Shown: piece by piece, positions 11,757 to 58,446 of the stretch
Numbering within the stretch: the first letter of the stretch is position 1
Layout: each line of letters begins with the position of its first letter
DNA from: a virus
Strand: one strand, 5' to 3'
Virus record (IMG/VR): IMGVR_UViG_3300009488_000019
Location: 5,128 to 69,127 of that record
DNA length: 64,000 bases
The notes under the pieces: generated by a model
Database searches by the model: none
The model's input: only the letters and a program-made list of their open reading frames with translations
What the model was told of the DNA's origin: nothing
Translations under genes and position numbers: made by a program

Positions 11757-12275
11757 ATGTATTATTTTACGAGCGACCAACATTTCGATCACATCAATAT
11801 CATTAAGCACTGCTACCGGCCTTTCAGGACGGTGGATGAAATGAATGAGAACATCATGAACGCTTGGAACCTGACGGTTACAAAGGACGATGTTGTAGTC
11901 GTGGCCGGTGACATTTCAATGCTTCCATCGGCTGATCTAATTCACAAAAGGTTTTTATCTAAGCTGAACGGCAATAAAGTTTTCCTTCGTGGGAACCATG
12001 ATCACTGGATGAAGGAAAAACGCTACATCTACAATAAACGGATCGAAGGCGTGCATGTATCTGTCTGTCACTATCCCATGCGTACGTGGCAGAACAGCAA
12101 TCACGGAGCTTGGCAACTGCATGGCCACTCGCACGGAACGCTGGAGCCGTTCTACAACCAATTGGATATCGGGATCGACAATGCTTTCAAAATCTTTGGG
12201 AGCTATCGACCATTCTCTTTTAATGAAGTCAAAGCAATCATGGAGGCGCAAGATGATCAAACAAACATTCTCTGA
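11757..12275 (+). CDS. calcineurin-like metallophosphoesterase
   Basis: SDQHFDH, GD, GNHD, CHYP, HGHSH motifs. Confidence 0.9.
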   Translation: MYYFTSDQHFDHINIIKHCYRPFRTVDEMNENIMNAWNLTVTKDDVVVVAGDISMLPSADLIHKRFLSKLNGNKVFLRGNHDHWMKEKRYIYNKRIEGVHVSVCHYPMRTWQNSNHGAWQLHGHSHGTLEPFYNQLDIGIDNAFKIFGSYRPFSFNEVKAIMEAQDDQTNIL

Positions 12276-13425
12276 TAAGCCGGTCAACATCTTTGGCATT
12301 GGCAATATCCAGCCAAAGGCACTGACGCAGTTAGAACAGTGTATGGAACCGGATTGGGTAATTCGAGCAGCAGCAATGGCCGATATGCATCTGGGCTACA
12401 CTATGCCGATCGGTGGAGTGGTTCTAACCGATAAAGCCATGATCATACCTTCATGGGTTGGTTACGACATTGGCTGTGGCGTATCTGGTATCCGTACAAC
12501 CTTTGATCCACGGGAGATACGGAGCAAGTCGCAAGAGATTTTCGACAACATCTATCGGATGGTACCGACCGGTAGGAATTGGAACCAGTATGAACCTGCT
12601 GGGTATACTGCGCATCTGGAGGGCATGCCAATGTCCTTTTGGATGGCTGATAATTATAAGGAAAAGAAAGCTGGCGCTCAGCTTGGTACGTTAGGTTCTG
12701 GAAACCATTTTATAGAAATTGGTATTGATATGTTCGATGCGGTTTGGATCATCGTACATTCGGGATCACGGAACCTTGGGCATAACGTTGCCAGCCGCTA
12801 CATTGCGGAGGCATGTGGTCATGCAACCGGTGTTTACAAGCAGAAAGAGGGTAGTCACCCTTTGATTGTTGGTACGGAACCCGGCAATGACTACGTGACA
12901 GATATGAATTTTTGTTTGGAGTTTGCCCTATTAAATCGGAAGGTGATTTTGGATAGGGTGGAAACAGCCATTCAATCTGTCTCATGTGATGGAGGTATGA
13001 CTGCGATCACATTAATCAATAAAAACCACAACAGTGCAGTGTTGGCCACGTATGGGTTTGGTGAAGAAACAGTACAGGGTTGGCTGCACAGGAAGGGAGC
13101 AACTGATGCAAGCGAAGGCGTTAAAGGGATTATTCCGGGCAACATGCGGGACGGCAGCTATATTGTCACAGGAAGAGGCAACGTGGATAGTCTCTTTTCG
13201 GCATCTCATGGAGCAGGTCGAATTGGCTCACGCAGAGAAGCTAAAGAGGAGACAACTCTTCAAGCGTTTGCAGAGAGCATGGAGGGTATCACGGCACGAG
13301 TCTCACTTGCTACGCTGGACGAGAATCCTTTGGCATATAAAAACTTCGAGTCTGTCATGTCGGCGCAAGAAGACTGTGTAAAAGTGATCGACCAAATCAA
13401 ACCATTAATCAATATCAAAGCATAG
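12253..13425 (+). CDS. rtcB: RtcB-family RNA ligase
   Basis: DMHLG, PIGG, VGYDIGCG, GTLGSGNHF, HSGSR, HN, HRKGA, IPGNM, SHGAGR, DENP-AYK; ATG 12253 after GGAGG. Confidence 0.95.
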   Translation: MIKQTFSDKPVNIFGIGNIQPKALTQLEQCMEPDWVIRAAAMADMHLGYTMPIGGVVLTDKAMIIPSWVGYDIGCGVSGIRTTFDPREIRSKSQEIFDNIYRMVPTGRNWNQYEPAGYTAHLEGMPMSFWMADNYKEKKAGAQLGTLGSGNHFIEIGIDMFDAVWIIVHSGSRNLGHNVASRYIAEACGHATGVYKQKEGSHPLIVGTEPGNDYVTDMNFCLEFALLNRKVILDRVETAIQSVSCDGGMTAITLINKNHNSAVLATYGFGEETVQGWLHRKGATDASEGVKGIIPGNMRDGSYIVTGRGNVDSLFSASHGAGRIGSRREAKEETTLQAFAESMEGITARVSLATLDENPLAYKNFESVMSAQEDCVKVIDQIKPLINIKA

Positions 13426-29163: not shown

Positions 29164-32100
29164 TTATCCTCCTGCTGCTAAGTATTTATCTATAGCTTTT
29201 TTGAGCAACGCTTTCCGTTTAATTAACAGAGCGTCAATCTCTTTGTTTTTTTGATCCCTTGATTTACCACTGCGGAGAATTAGATTCTCTTGAGTCTTAA
29301 ATCGCTTCAACCGTTTCCTGTAATTTAGCATTGACTTCCGCTGGCGCAACAGGTCACGCTTCTCAACTCTATACTCTCGTGCTTCGTCCCTACGACCTTC
29401 CTTCTTTAATAGATTCAAGGTACGATGGGCTTTCTCACCTTCAAGGAGCATGTCATAAAACTTCTCCTCGTATCGGCTACGTCTGGCTGGCCGGTCAAAT
29501 CTAACAAAACGTGAAAGACCGGAAACATAGCCAAGCGTGTCATATAGGAACGGGTCTTCTGGTGCTGACGTTGCGGCTTTGAATGCAATATCTACCCCAG
29601 AAAACGTTAGCGCTGACAGGTATGAGAAATAATCTGCAAAGAACTTCTCAATACGCAATGGCGACTGAGCTATCTCTGGCAGCCCAGCTAACTCTGCTAC
29701 CTTGCCAATACCCTTTGCTAACACTGATGTCCGTGGGCCAAACTGTTCGTCTGCATCCACTAACTCTTTGCCCCGTGGTACAATAGGTGCCCCTGTGAAG
29801 GAATCCCTATTTGCGTACTGATGAATCCACGGTTTCAAGAACTGCGGAATTGGATTGAATGCGAACATATCCATAAACGCAAACTTAGCGAAGTCCCAGA
29901 GGTTGCTGTCTCCAGCAAAGCGCTGGTTGAATAGTGACTTGAATAGTTCAACAGGCATCTTACCAGCCAATGTACCTATCTCAAATGGAGATGGGATACG
30001 TACGTGGCCAAGGCCCGGCACATCAAAGATATGGAAGTAATACCATTTCTCGTCATTGGTCAATTCCTTGTAACGGTCATCGTCTTCGTTCCAGAGATGG
30101 TTAAGCAGTGAAGCCATACCGATCGCTGCTGACGTGAGATAGAAATTAGCCAGATGCTTCTTTCCTTTCTTGGTGTTGGTTCCTTCTCGTCCCAGCTTGT
30201 AAAGTCCCTGTATACGTGCATTAAGGAACGGTACCATTGCAACGAAAAAGCGGGTGACTCCCCATTTACCACTCCGGTGAAAGTCCAGCAAGTCCTTCGC
30301 AGCATAACCAGCTTCCTGTGCGGTCTGTCCTTTCTTACGCTTCTTGGCATACAAACCTACACGGGCTGCGTTCTCAGACATCTCACCAAGTTTGTTATAC
30401 ATGTCAAGATACTTCAATGGATTGCCCCAGCCTCGCTTACCTTTCTTAGCTCGTTTGCGGAGCTTGGCAACACCACGTTCTGTCTGTGCCATGATATCCC
30501 TTTGATGATAGGCACCACTGAAAGCCCCACCTGTTGAGCGGAGTTCCTTCATTATCTCTGTATTCATACCAGCATGGTACATGCCTCTCATGGAATCAAT
30601 GATCGGGATAAATTCCTTTTCAAGAGTTGCGGTTGTGATTGAATCACGAAACCAGTTAGCCAGTTTGAAGGCCGGGTTCTGCGTGACAGCGTATGTCAAC
30701 CAACGTTTCGGAGCGTTGACTATCCGTGAGAACGTACCATTACTGATATCATCCAGATGCATGATTGCATTAAATGTCAGCTTGTCCTCAACCTGCCAGA
30801 ACTGATCCTTACCTCTGACCTTAATTTGAACGATACCCTTTCCGAAAGTACGATCGGTGCGCTCAGCCAAATCAAACTTCTTAAGGAGCTTAAGCGCTTT
30901 GACCCGTGCAACGTTACGCAGGGCATTATGGATGCTGGACGAATACGCATTCAGAAGGTTTGACATAGGATCACCCACGTTCTTACGTGAGCCTTTGAGC
31001 CTTTTCATACCTCTAATCTTTGCGCCGGTTGCGCCCGGATGAAGCATTTTAATATCACCGTCAAGGAAGTCGGTCATGGTTCTAAAGAACGGCATGTAGT
31101 TTTCCCGCTCCCAAGTCGATCTGGTTTCACCATCAATGATACTGGCGCTCTCCAGAATGTCCAGTACGGATTGGTTGTATTCCTTGAGCCGTGTCTCAGA
31201 GTCGTTCCATAGCTGCTTATTCGCAGCGTACAACTCTTTGGTAGACTCCAGAATAGTGTCAATCATTTCTTGATCATCAATAAGCTCACCGGCCTCATTG
31301 TTTCCAAACAACTGCGAACGACCTTTGTTCAGCATTTCCTGCGCCGACTTGGCTTGCTGCCAGAGTAGAAATAGCTCAGCATCATCACCAAGATTCTCAA
31401 ACACTTTAAGCAGACCACCTTTGCTTGAGTCCTCCCGGTTATATTGCACCCAATTGTTTTTCCAGATAAGGCGACCGTCTTCTAAGAATGATCTAAAGAT
31501 AGATTCAAAGTTTGACAGCATGTTCAAATCCATATAAGCGTCCTCACCGATAACAAGCTCACCAGCTTTTTGTTGGAGCTTACCTATTTTATAAAGCGGA
31601 TCGGCCAGACCGGTTCCGATATGATCCATCAGCGTCTCAAGAAACTTTCGAATCTTATCTCTGAATGGAGTCGGCTTGATCCCAATCTGTTGTATCAATT
31701 TCCACTGGTCAGGGGTTACCCGATCACGTAAATCCTTACGAGAAAACCGTTGTGACCGTTCCTCAGCGGAAACGGATAAATCTGGTGGTGTACGGCCCAA
31801 ATCGACCTCGTCAGAGGCCACAGGTTGGACGATCGTACCCTCACCTATAGCAGTATCAGCCGTTTTAACGACAGTTGCAAGAGCGACCTCTGGGGAGGCC
31901 TCAATGAAGTTACCTTTTTTAGCCGCATTTGGGAAGATAGCTTGGACTTCATCCAGATAATCAGCGGTCTTCATGTTGTTTTGAAAGCCCTTGGTCGTCT
32001 CTTTTCCCAGACCAGACCCGTCACCTTCATAAATTCCAAAGATAGCTCGACCATTCGGCTTGACAATGTCGGCTGCCTGTTGGATCACCCGCTGGCGAAT

Positions 32101-35100
32101 GTCAGGTTGCGCAATAACGTTCAAAACATTTGCGGCTGTGACCGTGTCGGCCCCGCCTTCGTAATCTGTCAGATTCAAGACTTCATCATTATGCTCTGCT
32201 GTCCGGTTGAACGGATCGTATACCCGGTGGATCACATCTGACTTTCTCAGATGGTCAGTCACGTTATCAAATTTACCACCACCAATATCGAAGACCGTTT
32301 CACCGGCTCCGAAGTTATACTTGGAAAATAACGTGGGCATTTTATCCTTGTTTATGGACGTGTCTGCACTGGAGATATCCTGCGCAGCTTTCTCCCAGAG
32401 CGCCGGGTTGATCTTTAGGCGCTGAGCCTGTTTCGATTTTTCACCGACTACAATATTTGGAATGGTTAGTTTGCCATTACCAGCGCCACAATTTGCCTGA
32501 CACTGAGTATCCAGTTTACCATTAAAACATTTTGCTTCGTTCAAGCAGCAGGTTCTATTTCTTAGATTAGGTTCCTTTGCGATAATCTCTTTCACCGCTG
32601 TGGACTTGTAAGACATCGACTCGTAACCCGGTGGCGTGTTGGCTTTGTCACCATGAAATAAAGTGATGATCCCAATCTTAGAATCCTTCCCTAACTCCAC
32701 AAAGTGCTTTGGATTTTTGGCAACAGTTCGGACGTGGACATTCGGATATTTCTTAGCCAGCCTGTGAGCTATGCCGTGATCCATCCCGGTGCCTTCACTG
32801 TCGATTGAGACATTAATGGTAATGCCTGTATGTGCAAAGTCCTCAACGAACTCTGGCCGTTTTGTGATAGCCTTTATAGATAGGCCACGGAGTTTAGCTT
32901 GTTCGAGAAGTAGCTCAATCTGTACCCGGTGAGCCGACTTGATATAATCGGAGAAGCTGAACATACGCAGACCACCACGTTGATTGGCCTCAGCGACCAT
33001 AGCCTCTGAGAATACGTACTCGCCTTTGTTCTTACCCTTCGTGTGCCTTTTAAGAAGGTAGTCCGTATACGGAATGGCCGTGATCATGGTCTTGACCTTT
33101 TCGTAGTCTACCCGGCTTTTGGCTGCACCTTCATTATGCAGAATGACAGCGTTCCGTCTATTCTGTTCCACGTAGCAATATGAGCAGGGCACGTCAAGGC
33201 CTTCCTTCCGGGCCTGATCCATTAGGTTAATCCAGACAGATTGCTCTGTCAAATCCTTAAGCTCAACCTGACCTTGCTCGAACTGATTATGTAACCAGCC
33301 AGCAAACGCCTCAGTCTTCGGACAGATGTTGCCCGGATCATAACTGAAATGCGTTTTGTTATTTTTGGAGAAGCCCTGATTGGCTAAGTCTGCACCAGTG
33401 GGATCAACACCAAACAGATACCTGTCCCTGATATTCTTATCAGAGTAGAAATACTTATCGCTGACGATGTCCCTTTCACCAGTAGCAATATCCTCAAACA
33501 TAGATTGAACCTCAGTCTGCTCTGTCTTATATCCCTTGAAGCGGAGATAGATGGCTTTCATGACGTTCTTAATCTTGTTAAAGGCCTTGGTGAGATTCGA
33601 TGTTGGCGCACTCTTGCGGCCAAGGTTCCATTCAGCAAAGCTCTTTGCGAACCAGCGTTGCCAATCGGTAGGTTCCTTAACTTCCTTCGGTTTGGTTTTC
33701 AACCATTCATTGTATAACTGTTTGGCCTCGCCACGTTTCAGCAAACGTCTGGCAGCGAAGTATCCAAACTCCTCAAGGAAATGGCCAGCGTCACCATCCT
33801 TATATAAGGTAACGATCGTCTTGGCATCTTGTTTAAGATCACCCATCTTCTCAAGGCGCACCGATGCGGTACCGGCCTCATCGGAGGTCAGTACTTCAAA
33901 GTGTTCCCGGTATGCTTCGGGCATAGAGTCCAACATGGCCTGAGCGTAATTGAGAGCGTCCTCATTGGCCCCTGCCTTTTTCAGCCGTTGGATATCATCG
34001 GAGAATGTAACCTCCCCACCCTTCGCAAGCTGCTGCCGTCTGACAGACTTCTGCATGGTCTTGACAATACCGTCAAGCTGCACATCAGTCATGTTCGGAT
34101 TGAAACCCAGAGCCTTAGCTAACCGGCGCAGGAATCCCCGGACACGCATCTTGATAGGCGTACCCCGTTTCTTTTCAAACAGGTTAACCAGTACCTCTTC
34201 AGCGGCCAGTTCATCCGTTGCATAACCACCATCCCTAAAGGACTTGACCTCTGTGGGATATCTGGCTTTGATCATATCAGTGATCTGTTTAAAGTCAGCG
34301 CTCAGCTTACCAGCGGCTGCCAGATTCTGAAATGTATTATGCCCGGACTCGTGCCATAGAGTATCCAGCGCCTCTACAAAGTCTGTGTGCGCACCCGCAA
34401 TAATATAGGTTGTATTATCAGTGGGTGACCAGAATCCTTGTATAGCGCCTGAGCGTACCTCTGCGGTTTGTTCGGCTTTAGGCAAATCGCTTATCTGCTC
34501 GACAACGGTAACTTTACCAAGATTCAGCTTTTCCTTTTCCTTAATGCGTGCTTCGATCTTGGTCTTCAATTTTTTGGGGGCTTCGGCTTTATCCGTTAAC
34601 GGTTTAACGGGAACTCGCTTCTGACGTTGGCCGGGTAAATCAGCCGATTTGGTAACCCCGTATTTTGTTGTGGCCGCCTCGCTTGTGAGAAACCCATCAC
34701 CCTGACTGATAAACCCGCTGGTTGCTTTCTTCAATGCAATGGCTTCATTCTGCGCCAGCGTTAGGTCAGCCGTATTGATGATATCAAAATGAGACGATCC
34801 TTCCAGAACCGTACCATCAGGGAATTTGATAGCGGCCTTTAAGTCCTTCGGTGGGGCTTGAACTTTAGGAGCCTTCGGTGGGATACGCCTTTCAGCATCC
34901 CGCTTTGCTATCTGAATTTTGGTTAGACCAAGCTGCTTCTCTCTGGCTCTGGCTCTCGCACCTTTAAACCGCATCATCCGTTGTGGCTCTGGTTTCTTCT
35001 CTGCTGGTTTCTTAGCGGCTGGCTCCTCAACTTCATCAAACTCTGTGAACAGGTCACCAGTGGCTTCCTTAGAGACAGGCTCAAGGGTAGGGGCACCTTC

Positions 35101-36948
35101 CTTTTTTGCCGCTACTTCGGTTTTCTTGGCCTCTGTCTCTTCGGCTTCTTGGGCTTCCTTTATCTGTAGCTCTTGGAACTTCCGATTTTCGTCAGCATAT
35201 TTCTTGCCCTCTTCGGCTTGCTCCAAAGCACCAACACGATCCCGCACACGCTCAGCTAATGCATCGGCTGTAATCTGATACTCATAAGGTTTCTCTTTCA
35301 AGTCCTTATCATTTTTTAGATCATACTCAAGACTCTTCAGCTTTTTGATACTATCCTCTTCCGTGACCAATGCTTTCCGGGCATCGTTAATCGGTTTAGC
35401 ATCCAGCCTTCCAGACTCTTCAAATAGACCCTCAGTGGTTGATACCTTCTCAACGTACTGTGAGCGCTGTTGTGATCGGGCGACTCTTTGATCTTGCTCG
35501 AACTGTGCCGCTGCCTTTTGCTCCTGCTCAAGACGTGCCTCTTCCTTTGCGGCCACTGCTGCGGCCCTTTGGTTATTGATCTCTTTGACAGCAGCCAGAC
35601 GCTCTTGCTGTGTCTCTTCTGTTCTAATAGAAGTGGATCGTTCCTGATTGGAAGTATCTGTTGAGAGTTGCGTCCCTGACTCGACTTTGGTTATTACATC
35701 ATCATCGTCCACAAGTTCAGTTTCAGCTTCTGGATCAAAATCCTTTTTCTCAATCAGTGGATTCTTTGCCATAGCCAGTTGCTCAGGCGAAGGCTCCAGA
35801 ATATTCTTAACGGCTTTGACAGTCTGACCAGCAATCTGACCGGGAGCTTTAATAACGGCTGCCGCACCACCGGGGATAAGTCCACCGGCTGCACCAACTG
35901 AAAAACTCTCCCAACGTTTGGCCCATTGTTCACTGGACTTCAAACGTTCCACAATCTCCGTCATGGAGTCCTCTGCGTTTGCCTCTGGCATTTCAGCCAT
36001 AACATCAGCAACTACTTCCCACTCACCCTGTGCCAACTCTTCAATACCTTCTGCTGCCATATTCTGTAGGATCGCTCCACCCTTTTTTTGTATGATTGCA
36101 GGGATAGCCATTTTGGTTGCGGCTGTGGAGAAGACAGTCTTAAAGGCTTTGATACCGATTATGTTACCAGCTACCTCCAGCGCTGCGGCTGGCAATGAAT
36201 ATAGTCTGGCGGCTGCATCAGCGTCCGAAGCCTTGATACCTTCCTTCCGGTAATCAGTAAACTTCTGGCCATGCATCTGTACTGCACCAACAGCTAAACC
36301 CAGAACTGGATTTACAATGGTAGCAGCCATGATAGGCGCAGAACGGGTGAGTCCTTTTAGCGCCTTCTCGAAAAGGTTTGCTACTGGATTGGTGTATATA
36401 TCAGTTGCTTCTGTATCAGGGTATTGTTCGGATAGGTCGGTATAGTAATCCCTGAGCTTTTGGGAATGCTCTTGAGCAATGGCAATCCGATACGCATCTT
36501 TAATATGCTTCGGCGTTTCCATGCCCGTGCGTTCCTTATACTCATTCAGGAACCTACCATAGCGTTTACGTAGCGCTATGTTTCCCATAGGACTATCGGG
36601 GTCAATATTTAGGGGATCATTGGCCAACCGGACTTGAGGGTCTTCCTTCTCGTCCTGAAAGGTCTTCATCATATCATGTACGTCACGAGCCTCTTCTATA
36701 CCGGCCCGGCTACGCATGAAGTCTCCCACGGAGCCAACGACTTCTGCTTTAAGTTGTTTGCCAAGCTCTTTTGCTTTAGCAATCTGACCAACTGGTTTTG
36801 GTGCGTCCATCTGGTGATCACCCTCCTGCACTGCTGGCATTTGGGTTGCCTCTTCCGTTTCCTTGAAAGGATCAAAATCTATACGGACAAGATTCTCATC
36901 ATCCTCTTCTTCTGAAAACGGGTCGTATTCAATTCGTTCTAATGTCAT
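29164..36948 (-). CDS. giant polyvalent internal virion/ejection protein (LPD38-like C-terminus, MTase, HExxH)
   Basis: 2594 aa; HESGH, DIGGGKFD/ANVLNVI methyltransferase motifs, IPSPFEIG and N.DSFTG.PIVP LPD38-like motifs; last gene of the virion module. Confidence 0.75.
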   Translation of the reverse strand: MTLERIEYDPFSEEEDDENLVRIDFDPFKETEEATQMPAVQEGDHQMDAPKPVGQIAKAKELGKQLKAEVVGSVGDFMRSRAGIEEARDVHDMMKTFQDEKEDPQVRLANDPLNIDPDSPMGNIALRKRYGRFLNEYKERTGMETPKHIKDAYRIAIAQEHSQKLRDYYTDLSEQYPDTEATDIYTNPVANLFEKALKGLTRSAPIMAATIVNPVLGLAVGAVQMHGQKFTDYRKEGIKASDADAAARLYSLPAAALEVAGNIIGIKAFKTVFSTAATKMAIPAIIQKKGGAILQNMAAEGIEELAQGEWEVVADVMAEMPEANAEDSMTEIVERLKSSEQWAKRWESFSVGAAGGLIPGGAAAVIKAPGQIAGQTVKAVKNILEPSPEQLAMAKNPLIEKKDFDPEAETELVDDDDVITKVESGTQLSTDTSNQERSTSIRTEETQQERLAAVKEINNQRAAAVAAKEEARLEQEQKAAAQFEQDQRVARSQQRSQYVEKVSTTEGLFEESGRLDAKPINDARKALVTEEDSIKKLKSLEYDLKNDKDLKEKPYEYQITADALAERVRDRVGALEQAEEGKKYADENRKFQELQIKEAQEAEETEAKKTEVAAKKEGAPTLEPVSKEATGDLFTEFDEVEEPAAKKPAEKKPEPQRMMRFKGARARAREKQLGLTKIQIAKRDAERRIPPKAPKVQAPPKDLKAAIKFPDGTVLEGSSHFDIINTADLTLAQNEAIALKKATSGFISQGDGFLTSEAATTKYGVTKSADLPGQRQKRVPVKPLTDKAEAPKKLKTKIEARIKEKEKLNLGKVTVVEQISDLPKAEQTAEVRSGAIQGFWSPTDNTTYIIAGAHTDFVEALDTLWHESGHNTFQNLAAAGKLSADFKQITDMIKARYPTEVKSFRDGGYATDELAAEEVLVNLFEKKRGTPIKMRVRGFLRRLAKALGFNPNMTDVQLDGIVKTMQKSVRRQQLAKGGEVTFSDDIQRLKKAGANEDALNYAQAMLDSMPEAYREHFEVLTSDEAGTASVRLEKMGDLKQDAKTIVTLYKDGDAGHFLEEFGYFAARRLLKRGEAKQLYNEWLKTKPKEVKEPTDWQRWFAKSFAEWNLGRKSAPTSNLTKAFNKIKNVMKAIYLRFKGYKTEQTEVQSMFEDIATGERDIVSDKYFYSDKNIRDRYLFGVDPTGADLANQGFSKNNKTHFSYDPGNICPKTEAFAGWLHNQFEQGQVELKDLTEQSVWINLMDQARKEGLDVPCSYCYVEQNRRNAVILHNEGAAKSRVDYEKVKTMITAIPYTDYLLKRHTKGKNKGEYVFSEAMVAEANQRGGLRMFSFSDYIKSAHRVQIELLLEQAKLRGLSIKAITKRPEFVEDFAHTGITINVSIDSEGTGMDHGIAHRLAKKYPNVHVRTVAKNPKHFVELGKDSKIGIITLFHGDKANTPPGYESMSYKSTAVKEIIAKEPNLRNRTCCLNEAKCFNGKLDTQCQANCGAGNGKLTIPNIVVGEKSKQAQRLKINPALWEKAAQDISSADTSINKDKMPTLFSKYNFGAGETVFDIGGGKFDNVTDHLRKSDVIHRVYDPFNRTAEHNDEVLNLTDYEGGADTVTAANVLNVIAQPDIRQRVIQQAADIVKPNGRAIFGIYEGDGSGLGKETTKGFQNNMKTADYLDEVQAIFPNAAKKGNFIEASPEVALATVVKTADTAIGEGTIVQPVASDEVDLGRTPPDLSVSAEERSQRFSRKDLRDRVTPDQWKLIQQIGIKPTPFRDKIRKFLETLMDHIGTGLADPLYKIGKLQQKAGELVIGEDAYMDLNMLSNFESIFRSFLEDGRLIWKNNWVQYNREDSSKGGLLKVFENLGDDAELFLLWQQAKSAQEMLNKGRSQLFGNNEAGELIDDQEMIDTILESTKELYAANKQLWNDSETRLKEYNQSVLDILESASIIDGETRSTWERENYMPFFRTMTDFLDGDIKMLHPGATGAKIRGMKRLKGSRKNVGDPMSNLLNAYSSSIHNALRNVARVKALKLLKKFDLAERTDRTFGKGIVQIKVRGKDQFWQVEDKLTFNAIMHLDDISNGTFSRIVNAPKRWLTYAVTQNPAFKLANWFRDSITTATLEKEFIPIIDSMRGMYHAGMNTEIMKELRSTGGAFSGAYHQRDIMAQTERGVAKLRKRAKKGKRGWGNPLKYLDMYNKLGEMSENAARVGLYAKKRKKGQTAQEAGYAAKDLLDFHRSGKWGVTRFFVAMVPFLNARIQGLYKLGREGTNTKKGKKHLANFYLTSAAIGMASLLNHLWNEDDDRYKELTNDEKWYYFHIFDVPGLGHVRIPSPFEIGTLAGKMPVELFKSLFNQRFAGDSNLWDFAKFAFMDMFAFNPIPQFLKPWIHQYANRDSFTGAPIVPRGKELVDADEQFGPRTSVLAKGIGKVAELAGLPEIAQSPLRIEKFFADYFSYLSALTFSGVDIAFKAATSAPEDPFLYDTLGYVSGLSRFVRFDRPARRSRYEEKFYDMLLEGEKAHRTLNLLKKEGRRDEAREYRVEKRDLLRQRKSMLNYRKRLKRFKTQENLILRSGKSRDQKNKEIDALLIKRKALLKKAIDKYLAAGG

Positions 36949-51773: not shown

Positions 51774-52133
51774 TTAAAACACTCTTGCATACTGAAAGTA
51801 GTAATTGTGCTTTGCGCCATTGTCCAAGGTGACTTCAAATATAACCGTATGCTTCTGACCGCTCTTGTAAGCTGCGGTAGACGGATACTCGAAGTAAACA
51901 GAAATGATATAATCAGAGATTACGATGGATTTTGAATCGTTAATCAATTCAGAAGTTGTCTCTGTCTGATCAGCGATTGCGTCTTCCTTATCGACTTTGC
52001 CAAGATAACTTTTGACGGTTGCTGAGGAAAGTACCGTACCTGTTGGTAGGGCTTCTTCCATGTCAAAATTATGTGGGCCGTAATCATCACTGTAATATCT
52101 GACCTCTATTGTTTTACGTTCAAAATCTGGCAT
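51774..52133 (-). CDS. small beta-rich putative structural protein
   Basis: beta-strand pattern; overlaps the rSAM stop codon. Confidence 0.5.
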   Translation of the reverse strand: MPDFERKTIEVRYYSDDYGPHNFDMEEALPTGTVLSSATVKSYLGKVDKEDAIADQTETTSELINDSKSIVISDYIISVYFEYPSTAAYKSGQKHTVIFEVTLDNGAKHNYYFQYARVF

Positions 52134-53559
52134 TTTCTATCATCCTTATCGTTTTGTTTAAAATGTCGTTTGAGAGTTCACGCTGTTTTTCATCACCCTC
52201 TGGGTTAGCCAATATCCGTTTACTCAGGTTCAAGAACTTTGTAAGTATTTCCCGATCCGCAAAACGGTTCTGAATAGGTCGGGCCTGAGCCTCTGTACTA
52301 CCCGTGTAGTTTGTATGGTCGCATACGCAAGCCCTTTCAGAGCTTCGGTCTAAATGGATGATCTCCCTATCGGTTCCTTCTGAATAACACATGTTAAAAC
52401 AAACGCAGCCTTTAGGCTTATGCTGTTGAGGACTCTGCATTAAACTCACACCAGCTTCTTTGGCTTTGGCCCGGAGCAATAACCCCGCTTCGTGCTGGAC
52501 TTTGGTGAACGCACATTCAACTTTAGGCTGTTTACGTATGTCACCCGTAAAGTCGTAATTGGTTGCATAGCACCCGCCGTTGCAGCCCGATTTACCCGCA
52601 CCCCAAATCTCGCACTTCTGACAGCTTGTGCAGGGATCGTTGATAAAGTCGAACTCGTCAAGGAAGTCCCGGTTTATCCATTCGAACGAGTCTCCCTTTG
52701 GTTGAGCGATACACGTTGGTGACGCTGCTTTTTCGTTAGCGGATAACCCGTGTTTGTTAAATCGGTGACACGGAAAACCATACCCGTCTACTGACCATGA
52801 CATATAATGAGTCCCGGCACCGCATGGATTATACTTCGGCCCACCGTTACCAATGGCTTCATCATTAAGGTGTTTGATTGTAGCAGGTAACCCTTTCTTA
52901 ACCCGCTCGACTTGGTACTCTACAGTCAACGCAAGTTGCTCTGCCGCAATTTTAAGATTCTCAGGTGTCCAATTAGACTCATAGACCGGAGAATAAATTG
53001 CTTCCTGTAATCCCAAATCTTCAAACATAAATTTTATAGATTTAAAAAAGTCTTTAACGTGATCTGCATGCAGCGACATACGCACCTTTGTAGACGGTAC
53101 AACCGCTAAGGCCAGACGCACATTTTCAACTACCTTATCCCATGAGCCAGTACCGTTTTTAAAGCAACGGTGAGCGTCATGTTGATCTCTTAGGCCATCC
53201 ATAGATATCATAAACAGTGACTTATGCTCCAGACACCACTTCACTCTGTCTGGTGTGTAAAGAACACCGTTTGTGGTACCACCAAAAGAAACCTCTCGAC
53301 CTAACTCTTTGGCCTTGGCCTCAGCATAGTACGTCAACTCTTGTAGGGTATCCCATCGGATTAATGGCTCCCCACCCCACCATGTGACACTCAGAGGCCT
53401 GTCAGTGGACGTTTGAGGCATCCACCAATCAAGTATCCGCTTTCCCATGTCGATTGTGAGATGCTTCGATTTATGCTGCGAATGTGTGAAACAATAATCA
53501 CACGCTAAGTTACAACCCTCTGTTAAATCAAGGGTGCAGGATGATAATCCCTCCATCAT
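52120..53559 (-). CDS. radical SAM/SPASM-domain enzyme (peptide maturase-like)
   Basis: CNLACDYC, WGGEPL, TTNG, ISMDG..HD..R, CGAG..GYGFPCHRF, CQKC....CNGGC...C. Confidence 0.93.
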   Translation of the reverse strand: MMEGLSSCTLDLTEGCNLACDYCFTHSQHKSKHLTIDMGKRILDWWMPQTSTDRPLSVTWWGGEPLIRWDTLQELTYYAEAKAKELGREVSFGGTTNGVLYTPDRVKWCLEHKSLFMISMDGLRDQHDAHRCFKNGTGSWDKVVENVRLALAVVPSTKVRMSLHADHVKDFFKSIKFMFEDLGLQEAIYSPVYESNWTPENLKIAAEQLALTVEYQVERVKKGLPATIKHLNDEAIGNGGPKYNPCGAGTHYMSWSVDGYGFPCHRFNKHGLSANEKAASPTCIAQPKGDSFEWINRDFLDEFDFINDPCTSCQKCEIWGAGKSGCNGGCYATNYDFTGDIRKQPKVECAFTKVQHEAGLLLRAKAKEAGVSLMQSPQQHKPKGCVCFNMCYSEGTDREIIHLDRSSERACVCDHTNYTGSTEAQARPIQNRFADREILTKFLNLSKRILANPEGDEKQRELSNDILNKTIRMIENARF

Positions 53560-53567
53560 ATATCTCC

Positions 53568-54455
53568 TTACTTAATTTTTCGTATTGCCAGCCAACGGCC
53601 AGTTGGTAGCTGGTAGCTGAGTTTTGAGTATGATAAACCCTTTAACCATTTCGGTGTATATTTAAAAGTGGGTTCAGTTTTGTCGTCTAAAAAATCCAAG
53701 GCTGCCTTTTTGACTTTAGCCTTTTCCTCTTTGGTAAAATCATCGGCACCATCAATGAGAAGCCGGGAGCTACTTACAGGCACACCATAGTCCTCATCTA
53801 TGTACGGGTCAATTAAAAGATAGTCTTCATACTTGGAATAAGTTTTATAAATGTATTCCTTGGCCATGTTCATATACAAATCTCTTTTTCCAGAAGCCTT
53901 AATTTTATAATCAACTGCACCGGAAAGAGCCGCAATCAAATGCGATCGCAAAAGACCAACAATCATTTTATTATGAAAAATATCTAATTCATCATCAAGC
54001 ATAATCTTATCTGCTTTCTCCACAATTTTATCAAACGGTTTGTAAAGCGCATCAAAGTCTAAATTATGTAGAGGGAGCATGACTGCTGCGCCCATTCGAT
54101 CTTTATCATTATGCCACGGTGTGAACTCTTCCAGACTCATTTCTAAAACGTAGTCAATTCCGTGGTTGGTACACCACTCTAAAAGGGCATCTTGCTCATA
54201 GGGCTTGAGGTAGTTTGGGTGAAAGCTATCTCCACCATCTAACCAACCTGACAGGGTAAAGAGTTCGAGAATTGGCATAAATATCTTTACGACTATTTTT
54301 GCGTCTGGCCGCAAGCGTTTAATCTCTGATATCATCCACGCATGCCCAGCGTGTAGGTATGATACATTCTTGCCCTGCAATCCAAAGTGAACGATCGGAT
54401 TGTTAGCATGATCAGCGATTAGATTATATTCCTGTTCCCGATTAATGACTTCCAT
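53568..54455 (-). CDS. PanC-like HIGH-superfamily adenylating ligase
   Basis: LHAGH, IVVKIF.P, D.L....GIDYV...EEF.P, SGKRD, GVPVSS parallel the pantothenate synthetase motifs LHxGH, VVSIFVNP, GVD, FGEKD, GLAxSSRN. Confidence 0.6.
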   Translation of the reverse strand: MEVINREQEYNLIADHANNPIVHFGLQGKNVSYLHAGHAWMISEIKRLRPDAKIVVKIFMPILELFTLSGWLDGGDSFHPNYLKPYEQDALLEWCTNHGIDYVLEMSLEEFTPWHNDKDRMGAAVMLPLHNLDFDALYKPFDKIVEKADKIMLDDELDIFHNKMIVGLLRSHLIAALSGAVDYKIKASGKRDLYMNMAKEYIYKTYSKYEDYLLIDPYIDEDYGVPVSSSRLLIDGADDFTKEEKAKVKKAALDFLDDKTEPTFKYTPKWLKGLSYSKLSYQLPTGRWLAIRKIK

Positions 54456-54456
54456 T

Positions 54457-55488
54457 TTACCATCTTCCAAAAGTGAAGCCCAAAGCGATATAGGTTATGA
54501 CAAAGGCCATTCCGATTGCGGTACCAAGTTTGTCGCCTTTGAACCATTCCTTCGCACAGGCCCAATAGTTTTGAGTGTTTAGTTGAATCCCAATGAAAAA
54601 GGACGGTAGCCCAATTATGGGGTGATTAATCAACAGCCAGATATTAGCAAGCTGCCATACACCAGCAATCAACATTGCTCTCCAGTATCCGATCTTGGTA
54701 CCTAACCAAGCACCGGGCCAACGAAGTAGCGCTGTGCTTAGGGCTGCAATACCAAAAGCGTAAATGGCTTCCATCTTGGTCATACCAAAAGTCATGAATG
54801 CCGGGATCACCTTTGTGATACAGAGATAATACACGCATCCGATGATCGTATGCCAAGCTGTCCAGTACCACCACTTCGGAGTCTTGAGCAATTCCGCAAC
54901 CTTCGTTTTACTCCATGATAGAAGTTTGAACGAATGATCTTTAACTGCGAACGAAGCCCATGTACCAAAGAAGGCAAAGAGTGCGGCTGCTGCTGCTGCG
55001 AACATACTAAAGCCAGCGGCTTTGACTACAGCGGCCAGTAGCAAATAGAAAAGGGCACTTCCGAAAGTCTTGGCTGATGCTTGTGGTGCAACTCGTAATG
55101 AGTCAATCTCACTATCCTTATTCTTTAGCGGCACTGCAAACGGCAGTATCTTAACTGCTGCGGCTGCGAGTCCCAGACCGATTCCAAACAGCCACATGTT
55201 AAAGGCTGCTCCAAGAATACCTAAGACACCCGCAAAGGTGGCAGCGGCTATTAGGTAATGTGCTTTCACACGATCGCTCATAAAGCCAAGTGCCAGAACT
55301 GATAAGGAAACGGTTGTAAAGAAAATCCCCATTCCTTGTTTCAAGTTCATTTCCACCACACCTGATTTTGCTATGGCAGAAAATCCTCGCTGAATCATAT
55401 AGACAATTAGCACCATGCCTGATAGCGGTAGCCAATCATAACTGATGCTTTTCAATTTGTTAAATTTATCTTTAATCCAATTCCACAC
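54457..55488 (-). CDS. MFS-like multi-pass membrane transporter
   Basis: about 10-11 hydrophobic helices; GFMSDR and GAWLGTKIG MFS loop motifs; EWF..DKLGTA.G. Confidence 0.75.
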   Translation of the reverse strand: MWNWIKDKFNKLKSISYDWLPLSGMVLIVYMIQRGFSAIAKSGVVEMNLKQGMGIFFTTVSLSVLALGFMSDRVKAHYLIAAATFAGVLGILGAAFNMWLFGIGLGLAAAAVKILPFAVPLKNKDSEIDSLRVAPQASAKTFGSALFYLLLAAVVKAAGFSMFAAAAAALFAFFGTWASFAVKDHSFKLLSWSKTKVAELLKTPKWWYWTAWHTIIGCVYYLCITKVIPAFMTFGMTKMEAIYAFGIAALSTALLRWPGAWLGTKIGYWRAMLIAGVWQLANIWLLINHPIIGLPSFFIGIQLNTQNYWACAKEWFKGDKLGTAIGMAFVITYIALGFTFGRW

Positions 55489-55519: not shown

Positions 55520-56374
55520 TTATGTCCAAGGATACTCATAAGCTGCAACGTGACATTGAACACATACATCGGTAAAGCACGTCACATCACAAGAACACGC
55601 ACCCTCATTGTTACAAACTGAATCACACGTACAGTCAACATTTCCATCACAAGATGAATCACAGCTACAAGCTGAGTATCCAAAACAGGCGCTATTGCAG
55701 GAGCAATTTACGTTTCCGTAACATGTATTATTGCATGAGCAAGCCGAATGACCCTGACATGAAAAGTCACAATTACATGAATCAGCCTTACACGATTGAC
55801 TGTTACAAGCGCCGTTGCATGAGCATGCCCCATATCCATGACAGGTATTATTGCATGAGCAATTTACGTTTCCGTAGCAAGCGCTATTGCACGAGCATGC
55901 TGAATAACCAAAGCACGAAGCATTACAAGTACAGTCAACATTCCCATCACAGGAGGCATCACAATTACAGACATATCCATCACATGTAGCATCACAGCCG
56001 CAGGTATCAGTATCACAGTTATGGCATTGATAGCACTTGCCATTCTGTATATAGTTCATGTTGTCTCTGACTTCTTCAACCAGCGGATCACCCCCATCTG
56101 TCATTGGGATGCTTCCAAATATATACCCCGCTGCCGCTGTCCATGTGAATGTACCCTCACCAATTAAGGTCTTGAGAGCATCTAAAGCATCTTGCATTTC
56201 TGTGAAGAGAAGCGCATCTATCCGTGTATTCGTTGTTGGCTCTTCATCCGTGAAGGTTGTTAACGAAATACCGTAAGCGGCTTCCCATGCATTAATGGCA
56301 TCTTGCAGTTCGTCTGCATGAACTGGCTTGAATGTCACCGCATAAGAAGGGTCAGTCCATGTTTGTTGAGCCAT
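55520..56374 (-). CDS. Cys-rich repeat protein (42 Cys), putative rSAM substrate with a virion-like N-terminus
   Basis: 12 CxC[DN]xxC units bounded by CYQCH and CVQCH; N-terminal duplicated (W/F)TD....(H/F).E(L/M)QDA motif. Confidence 0.85.
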   Translation of the reverse strand: MAQQTWTDPSYAVTFKPVHADELQDAINAWEAAYGISLTTFTDEEPTTNTRIDALLFTEMQDALDALKTLIGEGTFTWTAAAGYIFGSIPMTDGGDPLVEEVRDNMNYIQNGKCYQCHNCDTDTCGCDATCDGYVCNCDASCDGNVDCTCNASCFGYSACSCNSACYGNVNCSCNNTCHGYGACSCNGACNSQSCKADSCNCDFSCQGHSACSCNNTCYGNVNCSCNSACFGYSACSCDSSCDGNVDCTCDSVCNNEGACSCDVTCFTDVCVQCHVAAYEYPWT

Positions 56375-56375
56375 T

Positions 56376-57161
56376 TTATTTTACCTTTACCCAATGCCTT
56401 CCGTTAACCTCAACCTCATTTCCCGGTGGCCCCCAGATGATGTTTGGTTCTTTGCCAATGTAAACGGCCACAATTCTATCTGGATGAATAATCTTTTCAT
56501 ACCACCGCATCTTTGTAAGCTCACCATGCTTATTGCTGGTCAGCACCGTACCGGGGTGATAACGCTTATTGTCTATGTGAGCAAGCACCCATCCCGCAAC
56601 TGCGAGAGGCACCTGTCTTTGGCTTTTTCGTTGGCCGACTGCCATGCCGTACACGTCAGAGGAGATACCTAAGATTCCTTCCTGACAGCGTTTATCGGCT
56701 TTCATTGCGCCTATCCAAGACGCTTTATAGCAATAGCCGGGCTGTGCATCAGGGCCAGCCAATTTAATAAAATCGGCATAGTCAGAGAGATACGCATTAT
56801 AAACACGGGTTGCATAAAAATACCCATTGTAACCCAGCACGGTTGTACCGGCAGGGGAACTCTGATTGTATTCAAGCGTACCGGCTGATCCAATTTTAAA
56901 TGTCTCTGATCCCGTTTCTGCTAATCGTAACTTGTCAATCAGTATCCAACGTTTGGAGCCGGGGTTGTTGTCCGGGGCGATAATGCCGGGGCTTGATTCA
57001 CCCGCACCAGAAGCCGCATCCAGATTATGCAGGAATAGCTCATCACCGTCAAACGTAAAACTTTTGTAATTGTCAAGTAGAATAGCTCCGTCTATCCCAT
57101 CCAGATCATCCGTGGTTCCACCAAGAAGACCTACAGCGGGGTAAAAGTTTTTGTCTGGCAT
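56376..57161 (-). CDS. tail-associated protein with a C-terminal autocleaving chaperone (peptidase G2-like) domain
   Basis: SDYADF...GISSD.YG..VG...VPLAVAGWV...G..LTS..G. Confidence 0.55.
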   Translation of the reverse strand: MPDKNFYPAVGLLGGTTDDLDGIDGAILLDNYKSFTFDGDELFLHNLDAASGAGESSPGIIAPDNNPGSKRWILIDKLRLAETGSETFKIGSAGTLEYNQSSPAGTTVLGYNGYFYATRVYNAYLSDYADFIKLAGPDAQPGYCYKASWIGAMKADKRCQEGILGISSDVYGMAVGQRKSQRQVPLAVAGWVLAHIDNKRYHPGTVLTSNKHGELTKMRWYEKIIHPDRIVAVYIGKEPNIIWGPPGNEVEVNGRHWVKVK

Positions 57162-57172
57162 AACTTACACCT

Positions 57173-57655
57173 TTAAGCGAAACGTACAGTTATTCCGCAC
57201 AGATCATTGTTGTGGTTGACCGCAGCAGCGCCTACTGTCCGTCTGACAAAAATACGAACCGCAGCAGAGGCAGCAATGTCACCACAATCTAAAGCGGCAC
57301 CCTCAGTGGTCGGATGGGTAAAGGTCACAACTGGTGCGTCCGGGGCTGTGTCTTCATCTGCCAGTTCCTGCGTAGCTGTAGCGTCAATACCCACATCAAT
57401 TGCGGTATCGCCTGAAGCAGTTTCATCATCTATCCACAGGGTGACATCATCAGCTTGATCGGCACCGGAGTTATAGATATCAAACGCCCGGTACTCAATG
57501 TCGCCGGGTGTAGCCTCATCTTCGTCCACATGATCAAATAGATTGTTCATGACTGTTCCTGAGATTTCCACGGAACTCATGGTACCACCTAAAGATGCAT
57601 CTGGGTCAGCGTTTGCGCCTCCACCGGTTAGTCTAAATTCTATTACAGCAGCCAT
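57173..57655 (-). CDS. putative structural protein
   Basis: acidic; SLGG..S, NLFD.V...E...G..EYR motif seen in phage virion genes. Confidence 0.6.
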   Translation of the reverse strand: MAAVIEFRLTGGGANADPDASLGGTMSSVEISGTVMNNLFDHVDEDEATPGDIEYRAFDIYNSGADQADDVTLWIDDETASGDTAIDVGIDATATQELADEDTAPDAPVVTFTHPTTEGAALDCGDIAASAAVRIFVRRTVGAAAVNHNNDLCGITVRFA

Positions 57656-58446
57656 TAAATTACCTCACTTGTATGGTTATGTTTTGTTGTTACAAACTCA
57701 GTGTCTACCGGATGGGCTTTGATATCTGTCTCTACCGGAGTCGCACTGATTGAAAAGTCAACTGGTTTTACTGTATGTGTAGTTATTGGCAATGTTGAAT
57801 TAAATGATTTGAATTGAAAAATCAAAGGATGCGCATCAATTGTAAAAAGTAATGGATTCACTTTGACTAAAGTAATTGGCTCATACTGTACCCCAATCAC
57901 TGTCCACGAACTATCAAAATCTGCAAGATTGTATAACTTCCAACTGGAGTCGAACGCAGCAAGGTTAAAAATCTTCCAGCTAAAATCTTGCCCTGTCGAA
58001 TTAAAGATTTTCCATGACGAATTAAACGAATCTAAATTATAAATTTTCCAACTCGAATTGAATGAGTCAAGATTAAATATCTTCCAACTGGAATTAAACG
58101 AGTCAAGATTAAATATCTTCCAGCTTGAATTGAAAGCATTTAAGTTATAGATTTTCCAAGCCGCATCGAACGAATCAACATTAAAGATTTTCCATGCAGA
58201 GTTAAAAGAATCTAAATTATAAATCTTCCAAGATGAATCGAATGTGTTGGTATTAAAAATCTTCCAAGCTGAATCAAATCCAGCCGCAGCACGTATCTGC
58301 CATGAGGAGTCAAATGAATCTACGTTAAATATTTTCCAACTTGAGTCAAATGCACTCCATTTATAAAGGCCATACCAATGAACCGTGGCCCCAATCAGAG
58401 GCTCAGTCCACTTCACAGTAGCCCCTGATTTCCAATATACTGACAT
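57655..58446 (-). CDS. 12-aa Trp/Phe tandem-repeat protein
   Basis: 13 copies of F[DN]SSWKI[FY]NLDS. Confidence 0.8.
   Translation of the reverse strand: MSVYWKSGATVKWTEPLIGATVHWYGLYKWSAFDSSWKIFNVDSFDSSWQIRAAAGFDSAWKIFNTNTFDSSWKIYNLDSFNSAWKIFNVDSFDAAWKIYNLNAFNSSWKIFNLDSFNSSWKIFNLDSFNSSWKIYNLDSFNSSWKIFNSTGQDFSWKIFNLAAFDSSWKLYNLADFDSSWTVIGVQYEPITLVKVNPLLFTIDAHPLIFQFKSFNSTLPITTHTVKPVDFSISATPVETDIKAHPVDTEFVTTKHNHTSEVI
57904..58350 (-). repeat. 36-bp coding tandem repeat, 13 units
   Basis: synonymously diverged units encoding F[DN]SSWKIFNLDS. Confidence 0.85.

Follow-up and report, generated by a model that had tools for sequence, protein, structure and literature searches.

The virus record IMGVR_UViG_3300009488_000019 (69,127 bp, rated complete) was analysed over a window of 64,000 nucleotides (nt; positions 5,128 to 69,127 of the record). 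The minus strand of this 64 kb window codes for a major head protein, a portal, a terminase, an SU10-type adaptor, a tail fibre and internal virion proteins. It also carries an open reading frame (ORF) of 284 amino acids (aa) whose product contains a Cys array with its repeat units in mirror order around a central, Lys-containing element. In relatives of this protein the two arms of the array are equally long and similar in mirror order, units are gained or lost in pairs, and the array gene is linked to a gene for a radical S-adenosylmethionine (SAM) enzyme. The array probably folds back on itself. The parts of the array gene are as follows.

55520..56374, minus strand: array ORF, 284 aa, with a helical N-terminal domain, the Cys array and a Y-x-Y-P-W-T end
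56036..56374, minus strand: N-terminal domain (residues 1-113), three helices, with the conserved motifs MAxQxWT and ELQDAINAWE
56021..56035, minus strand: N-cap CYQCH (residues 114-118), conserved in its CxxC knuckle but not in its His
55805..56020, minus strand: ascending arm (residues 119-190), order of pieces given below
55778..55804, minus strand: central irregular element NSQS-C195-KADS (residues 191-199), the proposed turn, with the family's conserved Lys
55565..55777, minus strand: descending arm (residues 200-270), unit tails QGHSA, YGNVN, FGYSA, DGNVD, NNEGA, FTDV
55550..55564, minus strand: C-cap CVQCH (residues 271-275)
55520..55549, minus strand: conserved C-terminal end VAAYEYPWT and stop codon; Y281, P282 and W283 are almost invariant

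All 42 Cys of the protein lie within residues 114-274 (window 55553-56035, from the translation of the ORF), and this array of 161 residues is built on a 12-residue unit, C-x-C-[N/D]-x-x-C-x-G-x-x-x. The ascending arm starts with a CDTDT piece and one 11-residue unit, continues with 12-residue units tailed DGNVD, FGYSA, YGNVN and HGYGA, and ends in the start of the central unit; each cap is adjoined by one 11-residue unit. A sequence-only reading of this DNA had listed the unit tails in mirror order around NSQS-C-KADS, within an array bounded by CYQCH and CVQCH, and the translation agreed with it in both respects. It had also argued that the order is not that of tandem repeats. Keeping the Lys element as a fixed centre, we shuffled the right arm and obtained p=0.004 for mirror order of the tails (6 pairs) and p=0.035 for the three-residue inter-Cys pieces, among which NSA and NNT switch sides, whereas tandem order gave p=1.0. 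In a test with a free centre, the window array gave p=0.01 and the best palindrome centre was NSQS-C-KADS.

At the DNA level, the mirror partners are nested direct repeats (101 nt, 75% identity, spacing 156; 48 nt, 83%, spacing 300). An inverted DNA repeat as the origin of the mirror was ruled out, with 0 inverted pairs found. Identical residues were encoded by the same codon at 10 of 14 positions in the DGNVD pair and at 12 of 15 in the YGNVN pair, compared with 1-3 of 10-11 in non-mirror pairs of that type. Because these two pairs share codons, we conclude that at least two layers, each formed by a unit and its mirror partner, were copied between the arms on DNA. Codon identity was not raised in the FGYSA pair (3 of 14), and the likeness of this pair has the protein sequence as its sole basis.

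Two large searches returned 19 and 55 related proteins, and scans of viral and metagenome contigs returned 18 loci. The sample used for comparison comprised 31 proteins ending in Y-x-Y-P-W, which hold 29 distinct arrays of 71-161 residues. A Lys is found +2 to +5 residues past the cap-to-cap midpoint in 24 of these 29; the five exceptions are two arrays with unequal arms, two that have no central Lys and P0047, a double module. The lengths of the left and right arms correlate with r=0.94 (n=26 arrays), and the nearest relative, P0002 (72% identical), has one 12-residue gap per arm relative to the window protein. With arms that stay equal and P0002 differing by one unit per arm, homologues change their repeats in symmetric pairs, a behaviour that the sequence-only reading had named as a check on mirror pairing. 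The mirror test took 26 arrays, after removal of the double module, of the two arrays that have no central Lys and of two that exactly duplicate others. Tails were more like their mirror partner than shuffled partners in 20 of the 26 (Stouffer Z 5.4, Fisher p 1.3e-4), combined values that overstate independence because the tested arrays are related and some are near-duplicates. Tandem order gave no signal across the same arrays (Z -1.2). P0047 (L001:6372-8711; 779 aa) carries two complete Cys modules in tandem, both with a Tyr-Ser-Tyr-x-Lys centre and equal arms; as each has its own centre, duplication involves the entire module.

No family for the array protein was found in Pfam, PHROGs, NCBIfam or PADLOC. 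Its tblastn search against GenBank phages gave no match, for which the low-complexity filter is possibly responsible, a scan of genome contigs gave no relatives, and no cultured phage with the cassette was found among the GenBank phages.

Both array ends carry CxxC in 29/29 arrays. The residue that follows is more variable: the fifth residue of the N-cap is H in 14 arrays and D in 15, and the C-cap CxxC is followed by D (16), H (7), N (3) or Y (3), so that CxxCH at both ends occurs in only 2/29. A four-Cys clasp that unites the two array ends is an attractive idea and a candidate for the role of the caps.

The proposed maturase is encoded in the same cassette.

52120..53559, minus strand: radical SAM/SPASM enzyme, 479 aa, proposed array maturase, PapB/SCIFF-like, two genes downstream of the array gene
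52300..52410, minus strand: C-terminal extension of the enzyme (residues 384-420) with two repeat-like units (CVCFNMCYSEG ... CVCDHTNYTG)

The radical SAM motif CX3CX2C (C16/C20/C23) and the SPASM Cys (C246, C264, C313, C316, C326, C330 and C349) are all invariant in five homologues. The top NCBIfam matches were PapB ranthipeptide maturase (2.7e-58), SCIFF maturase (1.9e-42), QhpD (6.2e-42) and CXXX-repeat maturase (1.5e-35), all of them families of peptide or protein thioether cross-linkers. The match to the sactipeptide maturase RumMC (E 6.7e-23) was far weaker than that to PapB, and PADLOC gave a generic viperin-core match and no other family. By these profile matches, the enzyme is related to the PapB/SCIFF families and is not an equivalog of any of them.

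A radical SAM gene was present no more than 5 kb from the array gene in 10/10 contigs that run on for 2 kb or more on that side. These are the window, L001/L017, L002, L003, L010, L011, L015, L018 and L023, with E values from 4e-13 to 2e-146, and L016, where the enzyme match is weak (E 6e-5) and is accompanied by three CX3CX2C ORFs; L003 and L010 are near-identical, and ten further loci that end less than 1.1 kb past the array gene were not judged. As a background rate, 35 of 50,697 GenBank phage records match the enzyme (E<=1e-10), all at <30% identity. Because the array protein of L023 has a different N-terminus, the link to the enzyme follows the array and not the N-terminal domain. These findings tip the balance, by a modest amount, towards an enzyme that acts on the array.

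The two repeat-like units in the enzyme's tail are set apart by a 19-residue loop. Their pattern, C-x-C-x-N-x-C-Y-x-x-G ... C-x-C-x-x-x-x-Y, is invariant in five enzymes of 40-48% identity (C385, C387, N389, C391, Y392, G395, C411, C413 and Y418). The tail looks like one substrate layer built into the enzyme, and might serve for docking, as a pseudo-substrate or as an additional cluster site.

In some cassettes the array gene is followed by a run of three radical SAM genes that differ in type (L016:6232-10242, L001:11268-12392, L017:15418-16917), which suggests more than one kind of modification. In an uncultured gut phage (L020; GenBank MT835472.1), a small ORF (5420-5632), Cys-rich and SCIFF-like at its C-terminus, lies just upstream of a radical SAM enzyme gene (6001-7077) whose product is 28% identical to that of the window. 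The two have the look of a classical pair of peptide and maturase, here in a phage.

The array offers suitable sites for this kind of chemistry. Asn or Asp occupies unit position 4 in 85% of 171 distinct 12-mers, and in CxxC-headed units D/N stands directly past the second Cys in 87% of 16. Because the CxxC-headed units retain D/N, the second and third Cys and the Asx keep strict register, and the position of the first Cys may vary by one. Around the Asx, one Cys stands three residues further on (N-x-x-C) and another three or four residues earlier, and each unit thereby offers the documented thioether geometries N-x-x-C and C-x-x-N/D. The motif of PapB is Cys-X3-Asp. In NxxcA, Cys23 is linked to the C-beta of Asn20, which is the N-x-x-C geometry, freyrasin has six Cys-Asp links, CteA has one Cys-Thr link and QhpD makes Cys-Asp/Glu links (available part of PMC8326336).

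Three further genes surround the array gene.

56376..57161, minus strand: 261-aa gene, upstream of the array gene and one base away; the C-terminal domain of its product is shared with the collagen-repeat fibre of L001
54457..55488, minus strand: polytopic membrane protein, 343 aa, between array gene and enzyme; weak MFS_1 match, E 6e-4
53568..54470, minus strand: 300-aa protein with an HxGH motif, between membrane protein and enzyme

The 261-aa protein is 50% identical over 169 aa to L001:3841-4338, and the L001 ORF that has this C-terminal domain at its end matches Pfam Collagen (E 4.7e-88). In L001, L006, L008, L009, L013, L014, L016 and L018, the gene immediately upstream of the array gene is a homologue of the 261-aa gene. 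Arrays also occur as the C-terminal part of 430-1200 aa proteins with F5/8 type C (discoidin), C1q and collagen-trimerisation domains. The N-terminal domain of the array protein is likewise found C-terminally or internally in long adhesin-like proteins, and it is the last domain of proteins that bear Ig, fn3, Calx-beta and beta-helix domains. From this gene context we infer that the array protein is part of a fibre, presumably a tail fibre. Homologues of the membrane protein lie 3' of the array gene in L004 and L011 and are missing from most cassettes.

The 300-aa HxGH protein aligned with HxGH proteins of L016, L018 and L023 in the motif region only (19 columns, hhalign E 0.054); its homology to these HxGH...EEIDYY proteins was unsupported past the motif, and phmmer gave none. 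The latter (L016:4660-5460, L018:7528-8268 and L023:6827-7618) are mutually homologous, carry the nucleotidyltransferase-like motif S-x-x-H-x-G-H N-terminally and end in EE[IV]DY[YF]; S-x-x-H-x-G-H proteins accompany radical SAM genes in several cassettes. In some cassettes the array gene is followed by that for a ~160-aa protein ending KWNYEL...W.QY (L003:2878-3363 and 4058-4543; L002 ~1222-1726), which could be a helper or chaperone. The gene string that holds the array gene is headed by a 263-aa protein (57655-58446, minus strand) made mostly of ~12-residue FDSSWKIFNLD-type repeats (36-nt period, 6.5 copies by Tandem Repeats Finder) and with no significant family match. Elsewhere in the window, a giant ORF of 2594 aa (29164-36948, minus strand), downstream of an internal virion protein gene, has its sole matches in PHROGs whose function is unknown (phrog_18222, E 2e-59), and an RtcB-like RNA ligase (12055-13425, plus strand; phrog_1075, E 1.3e-102) is encoded in the replication module.

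We propose the following arrangement. The three-helix N-terminal domain would carry the 161-residue Cys array of a modular, fibre-associated protein. The array would run outward through about six 12-residue units, turn at NSQS-C195-KADS and run back; since it would reverse at the Lys turn, unit k of both arms would come to lie in one layer. The CxxC knuckles C114/C117 and C271/C274 would shut the open end beside the N-terminal domain and the YxYPW tail. The phage's PapB/SCIFF-type enzyme would install ranthionine-type thioethers, with Cys to Asn/Asp at unit position 4 as the putative link and link site, and leftover in-register Cys could form cross-arm disulfides or metal sites. For this reading in full, a fibre-borne hairpin rod stapled by thioethers, we consider the chances to be even. 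A tentative and rather doubtful extension of it is that the protein represents a new type of rod, in which a ladder of mirror units grows by one unit per arm and is locked by thioethers and cross-arm bonds. The maturase would then dock on or prime its substrate via its own one-layer copy, which would replace the leader-recognition domain, and the chemistry of RiPPs (ribosomally synthesised, post-translationally modified peptides) would build a viral host-recognition fibre.

Several observations weigh against the stapled hairpin. Among relatives, the free-centre test reached p<0.05 individually in only 7/45 arrays, and the inter-Cys pieces gave a weaker result than the tails (mirror likeness in 17/26, Fisher p 0.15), to which the dependence among arrays noted above must be added. 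In two arrays (the first ORF of L002 and P0022) the left arm is 17-18 residues (~1.5 units) longer, and the two further arrays that have no central Lys also depart from the rule. The enzyme scored under every curated NCBIfam cut-off: 198 vs 340 bits for PapB (NF047865), 146 vs 425 for the SCIFF-maturase model TIGR03974 and 77 vs 525 for the CrpC family TIGR04463. It also has no N-terminal leader-recognition (RRE) domain; the radical SAM motif starts from residue 16, and the match to TIGR03974 sets in at model position 100, with the N-terminal stretch covered by that model missing from the enzyme. The links known for PapB-type enzymes are local and would therefore not alone hold two arms together. 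Moreover, the membrane and HxGH proteins in the cassette could point to export instead.

Structure prediction adds to these points. AlphaFold2 predicted the helices of the N-terminal domain (residues 17-33, 54-70 and 97-112) with a pLDDT (predicted score of the local distance difference test) of 70-88 in the window protein, and the N-terminal domain of the homologue P0028 (190 aa) with 79-93. In the array itself the pLDDT was 26-38 for the window protein and 39-52 for the short P0028 (30-row alignment). The ESM Atlas model had a predicted template modelling score (pTM) of 0.35 and gave no usable feature match. A three-copy prediction of residues 96-284, run without controls, scored 0.00 with partner pLDDT <50 and is silent on oligomerisation either way. 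Foldseek searches of PDB and BFVD returned nothing at E<=0.001, and a PDB profile search with the array protein returned nothing relevant, with one unrelated ribosomal-protein row (E 0.097). The sequence-only reading had the chain fold back with mirror repeats adjacent. Comparison of relatives speaks for this (midpoint Lys, covariation of the arms, mirror similarity, paired indel), but the contacts themselves appear in no model.

The same fold-back rod might be held, in the manner of DnaJ zinc fingers or the His-Fe needle of T4 gp37, by Zn/Fe sites at the CxxC knuckles and in CxC...C layers and/or by disulfides formed after lysis, with the radical SAM enzyme directed at another target. The hairpin evidence fits such a needle equally, CxxC...CxxC at the two ends of every array is a pattern classically indicative of a four-Cys metal knuckle, three Cys per unit amount to six per layer, and the five invariant Cys in the repeat-like tail of the enzyme could equally be a cluster site. 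Left unexplained, however, are the strict linkage with a peptide-maturase-type enzyme and the preference for Asn/Asp at unit position 4, and no sequence match to a solved metal-binding protein was obtained at E<=1. We regard metal or disulfide bonding without thioethers as unlikely, though worth serious consideration. Metals, Fe-S clusters, disulfides and thioethers had stood side by side in the sequence-only reading, which preferred metal ligation; thioethers now move to first place because a conserved PapB/SCIFF-like radical SAM/SPASM enzyme is encoded in the same cassette. The analogies of that reading with DnaJ and the T4 gp37 needle found no sequence or fold match; for gp37 this was a comparison with an array protein whose array has no usable model. 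Haem c, which it had ranked low, would make the protein c-type cytochrome-like, with haem at the two CxxCH motifs of the window protein. The low rank was right: we reject haem attachment because His follows both caps in just 2/29 arrays, the place being otherwise taken by Asp, Asn or Tyr. No cytochrome family match was found in Pfam or NCBIfam, and the N-terminus (MAQQTWTDPSY) is by eye free of any hydrophobic stretch, with no signal peptide visible; haem binding has a negligible probability.

A different role was considered for an array that the enzyme does mature. The protein could be an effector and not a virion part, for example an exclusion or competition factor, with the N-terminal domain as recognition or leader region and the membrane protein as exporter. 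The MFS-like polytopic protein 3' of the array gene in the window, L004 and L011 would suit this, as would the small SCIFF-like peptides that adjoin related enzymes in gut phage records (L020), and radical-SAM-matured repeat-protein effectors exist (HxsA; available part of PMC13128918). RiPPs are a further precedent. Against an effector, in 8 loci fibre-like genes directly precede the array gene, which here is separated from the 261-aa gene by one base, and arrays form the C-terminal parts of large proteins with collagen-trimerisation, C1q and discoidin domains. The absence of a visible signal peptide and of the membrane protein from most cassettes also speaks against it, as does PADLOC, which gives only the generic viperin-core match for the enzyme. 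An exported effector is improbable. The beta-helical antifreeze protein of Tenebrio has a 12-residue coil with Cys every sixth residue, internal disulfides and a T-C-T face. Its spacing is found in the array, where Cys occupies unit positions 1 and 7, with one more at position 3. The array might accordingly be a single-pass beta-solenoid whose mirror order is a side effect of DNA copying among repeats, without meaning for the structure. The DNA tracts shared by the arms would agree with this, and so would the low-confidence AlphaFold3 beta-helix for the archaeal protein CrpA (available part of PMC13692751). A solenoid does not account for an irregular Lys element at the very midpoint in 24/29 arrays, nor for covarying arm lengths, two CxxC caps or the whole-module duplication in P0047. 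No sequence match to any solved protein was found, and the PDB search gave none to the Tenebrio protein. We consider a solenoid with an accidental mirror very improbable.

If the stapled hairpin is true, phages use radical-SAM thioether chemistry on a protein that is fibre-associated by gene context, a chemistry so far associated with small antibiotic-like peptides and, since 2026, with one archaeal protein. The mirror architecture provides a testable design rule (equal arms, Lys tip, CxxC clasp, paired unit gain) and suggests a possible scaffold, a thin, very stable rod of adjustable length. The enzyme linkage marks a class of phage fibre genes left unnamed by current libraries. In the literature searched there was no description of Cys-repeat phage fibres with radical SAM enzymes, and none of such a use of the chemistry in any virus.

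The T4 gp37 needle (PDB 2XGF) binds iron through HxH motifs; its chain goes out and returns, and the receptor-binding tip lies where it turns. It resembles the proposed rod, which would likewise be part of a phage fibre with a short ligand motif repeated on both passes of the chain, and differs from it in using His and not Cys, in being trimeric and intertwined and in having no modifying enzyme. The Cys-rich domain of DnaJ has nested pairing of Cys motifs, outer with outer and inner with inner, but consists of four CxxCxGxG motifs and two zinc ions, whereas the phage array is built of up to 14 CxC[ND]xxC units. DnaJ-type CxxCxGxG motifs are absent from it; the caps are CxxC[H/D] with no GxG, and the inner units are CxC.

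Sactipeptides such as subtilosin A, thurincin H and thuricin CD are hairpins braced between their halves by nested radical-SAM thioethers (available part of PMC8326336). They differ in having 30-40 residues, Cys donors on a single arm and C-alpha links. The closest enzyme families are those of the ranthipeptide systems PapA/PapB (freyrasin) and NxxcA/NxxcB, of SCIFF CteA/CteB and of QhpC/QhpD, whose Cys-to-Asp/Asn C-beta geometry, in the published descriptions available, is the one offered by every unit of the array. The substrate of QhpD is a protein subunit and not a natural product. In these systems the substrates are short leader peptides or an enzyme subunit, and the links are local and serial, unlike a two-armed rod.

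The large protein CrpA of Methanococcus voltae, on which the SPASM enzyme CrpC installs ranthionine links, has ten Cys repeats with C-X-X-Q/D motifs, and its array was predicted with low confidence (Dieter et al. 2026, available part of PMC13692751). Like the phage protein, it has a folded N-terminal part and a C-terminal Cys-repeat array with C-X-X-D/Q-type motifs, and its gene lies beside that of a SPASM radical SAM enzyme. CrpC, a three-cluster SPASM enzyme of family TIGR04463, has an RRE, whereas the phage enzyme lacks an N-terminal domain for recognition and carries a repeat-like C-terminal tail instead. CrpA is a cellular protein with a 17-residue repeat; the available part of the paper describes no mirror order or central turn for it, and the main text is silent on phage, tail and hairpin. 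What the present case adds is the quantified mirror architecture.

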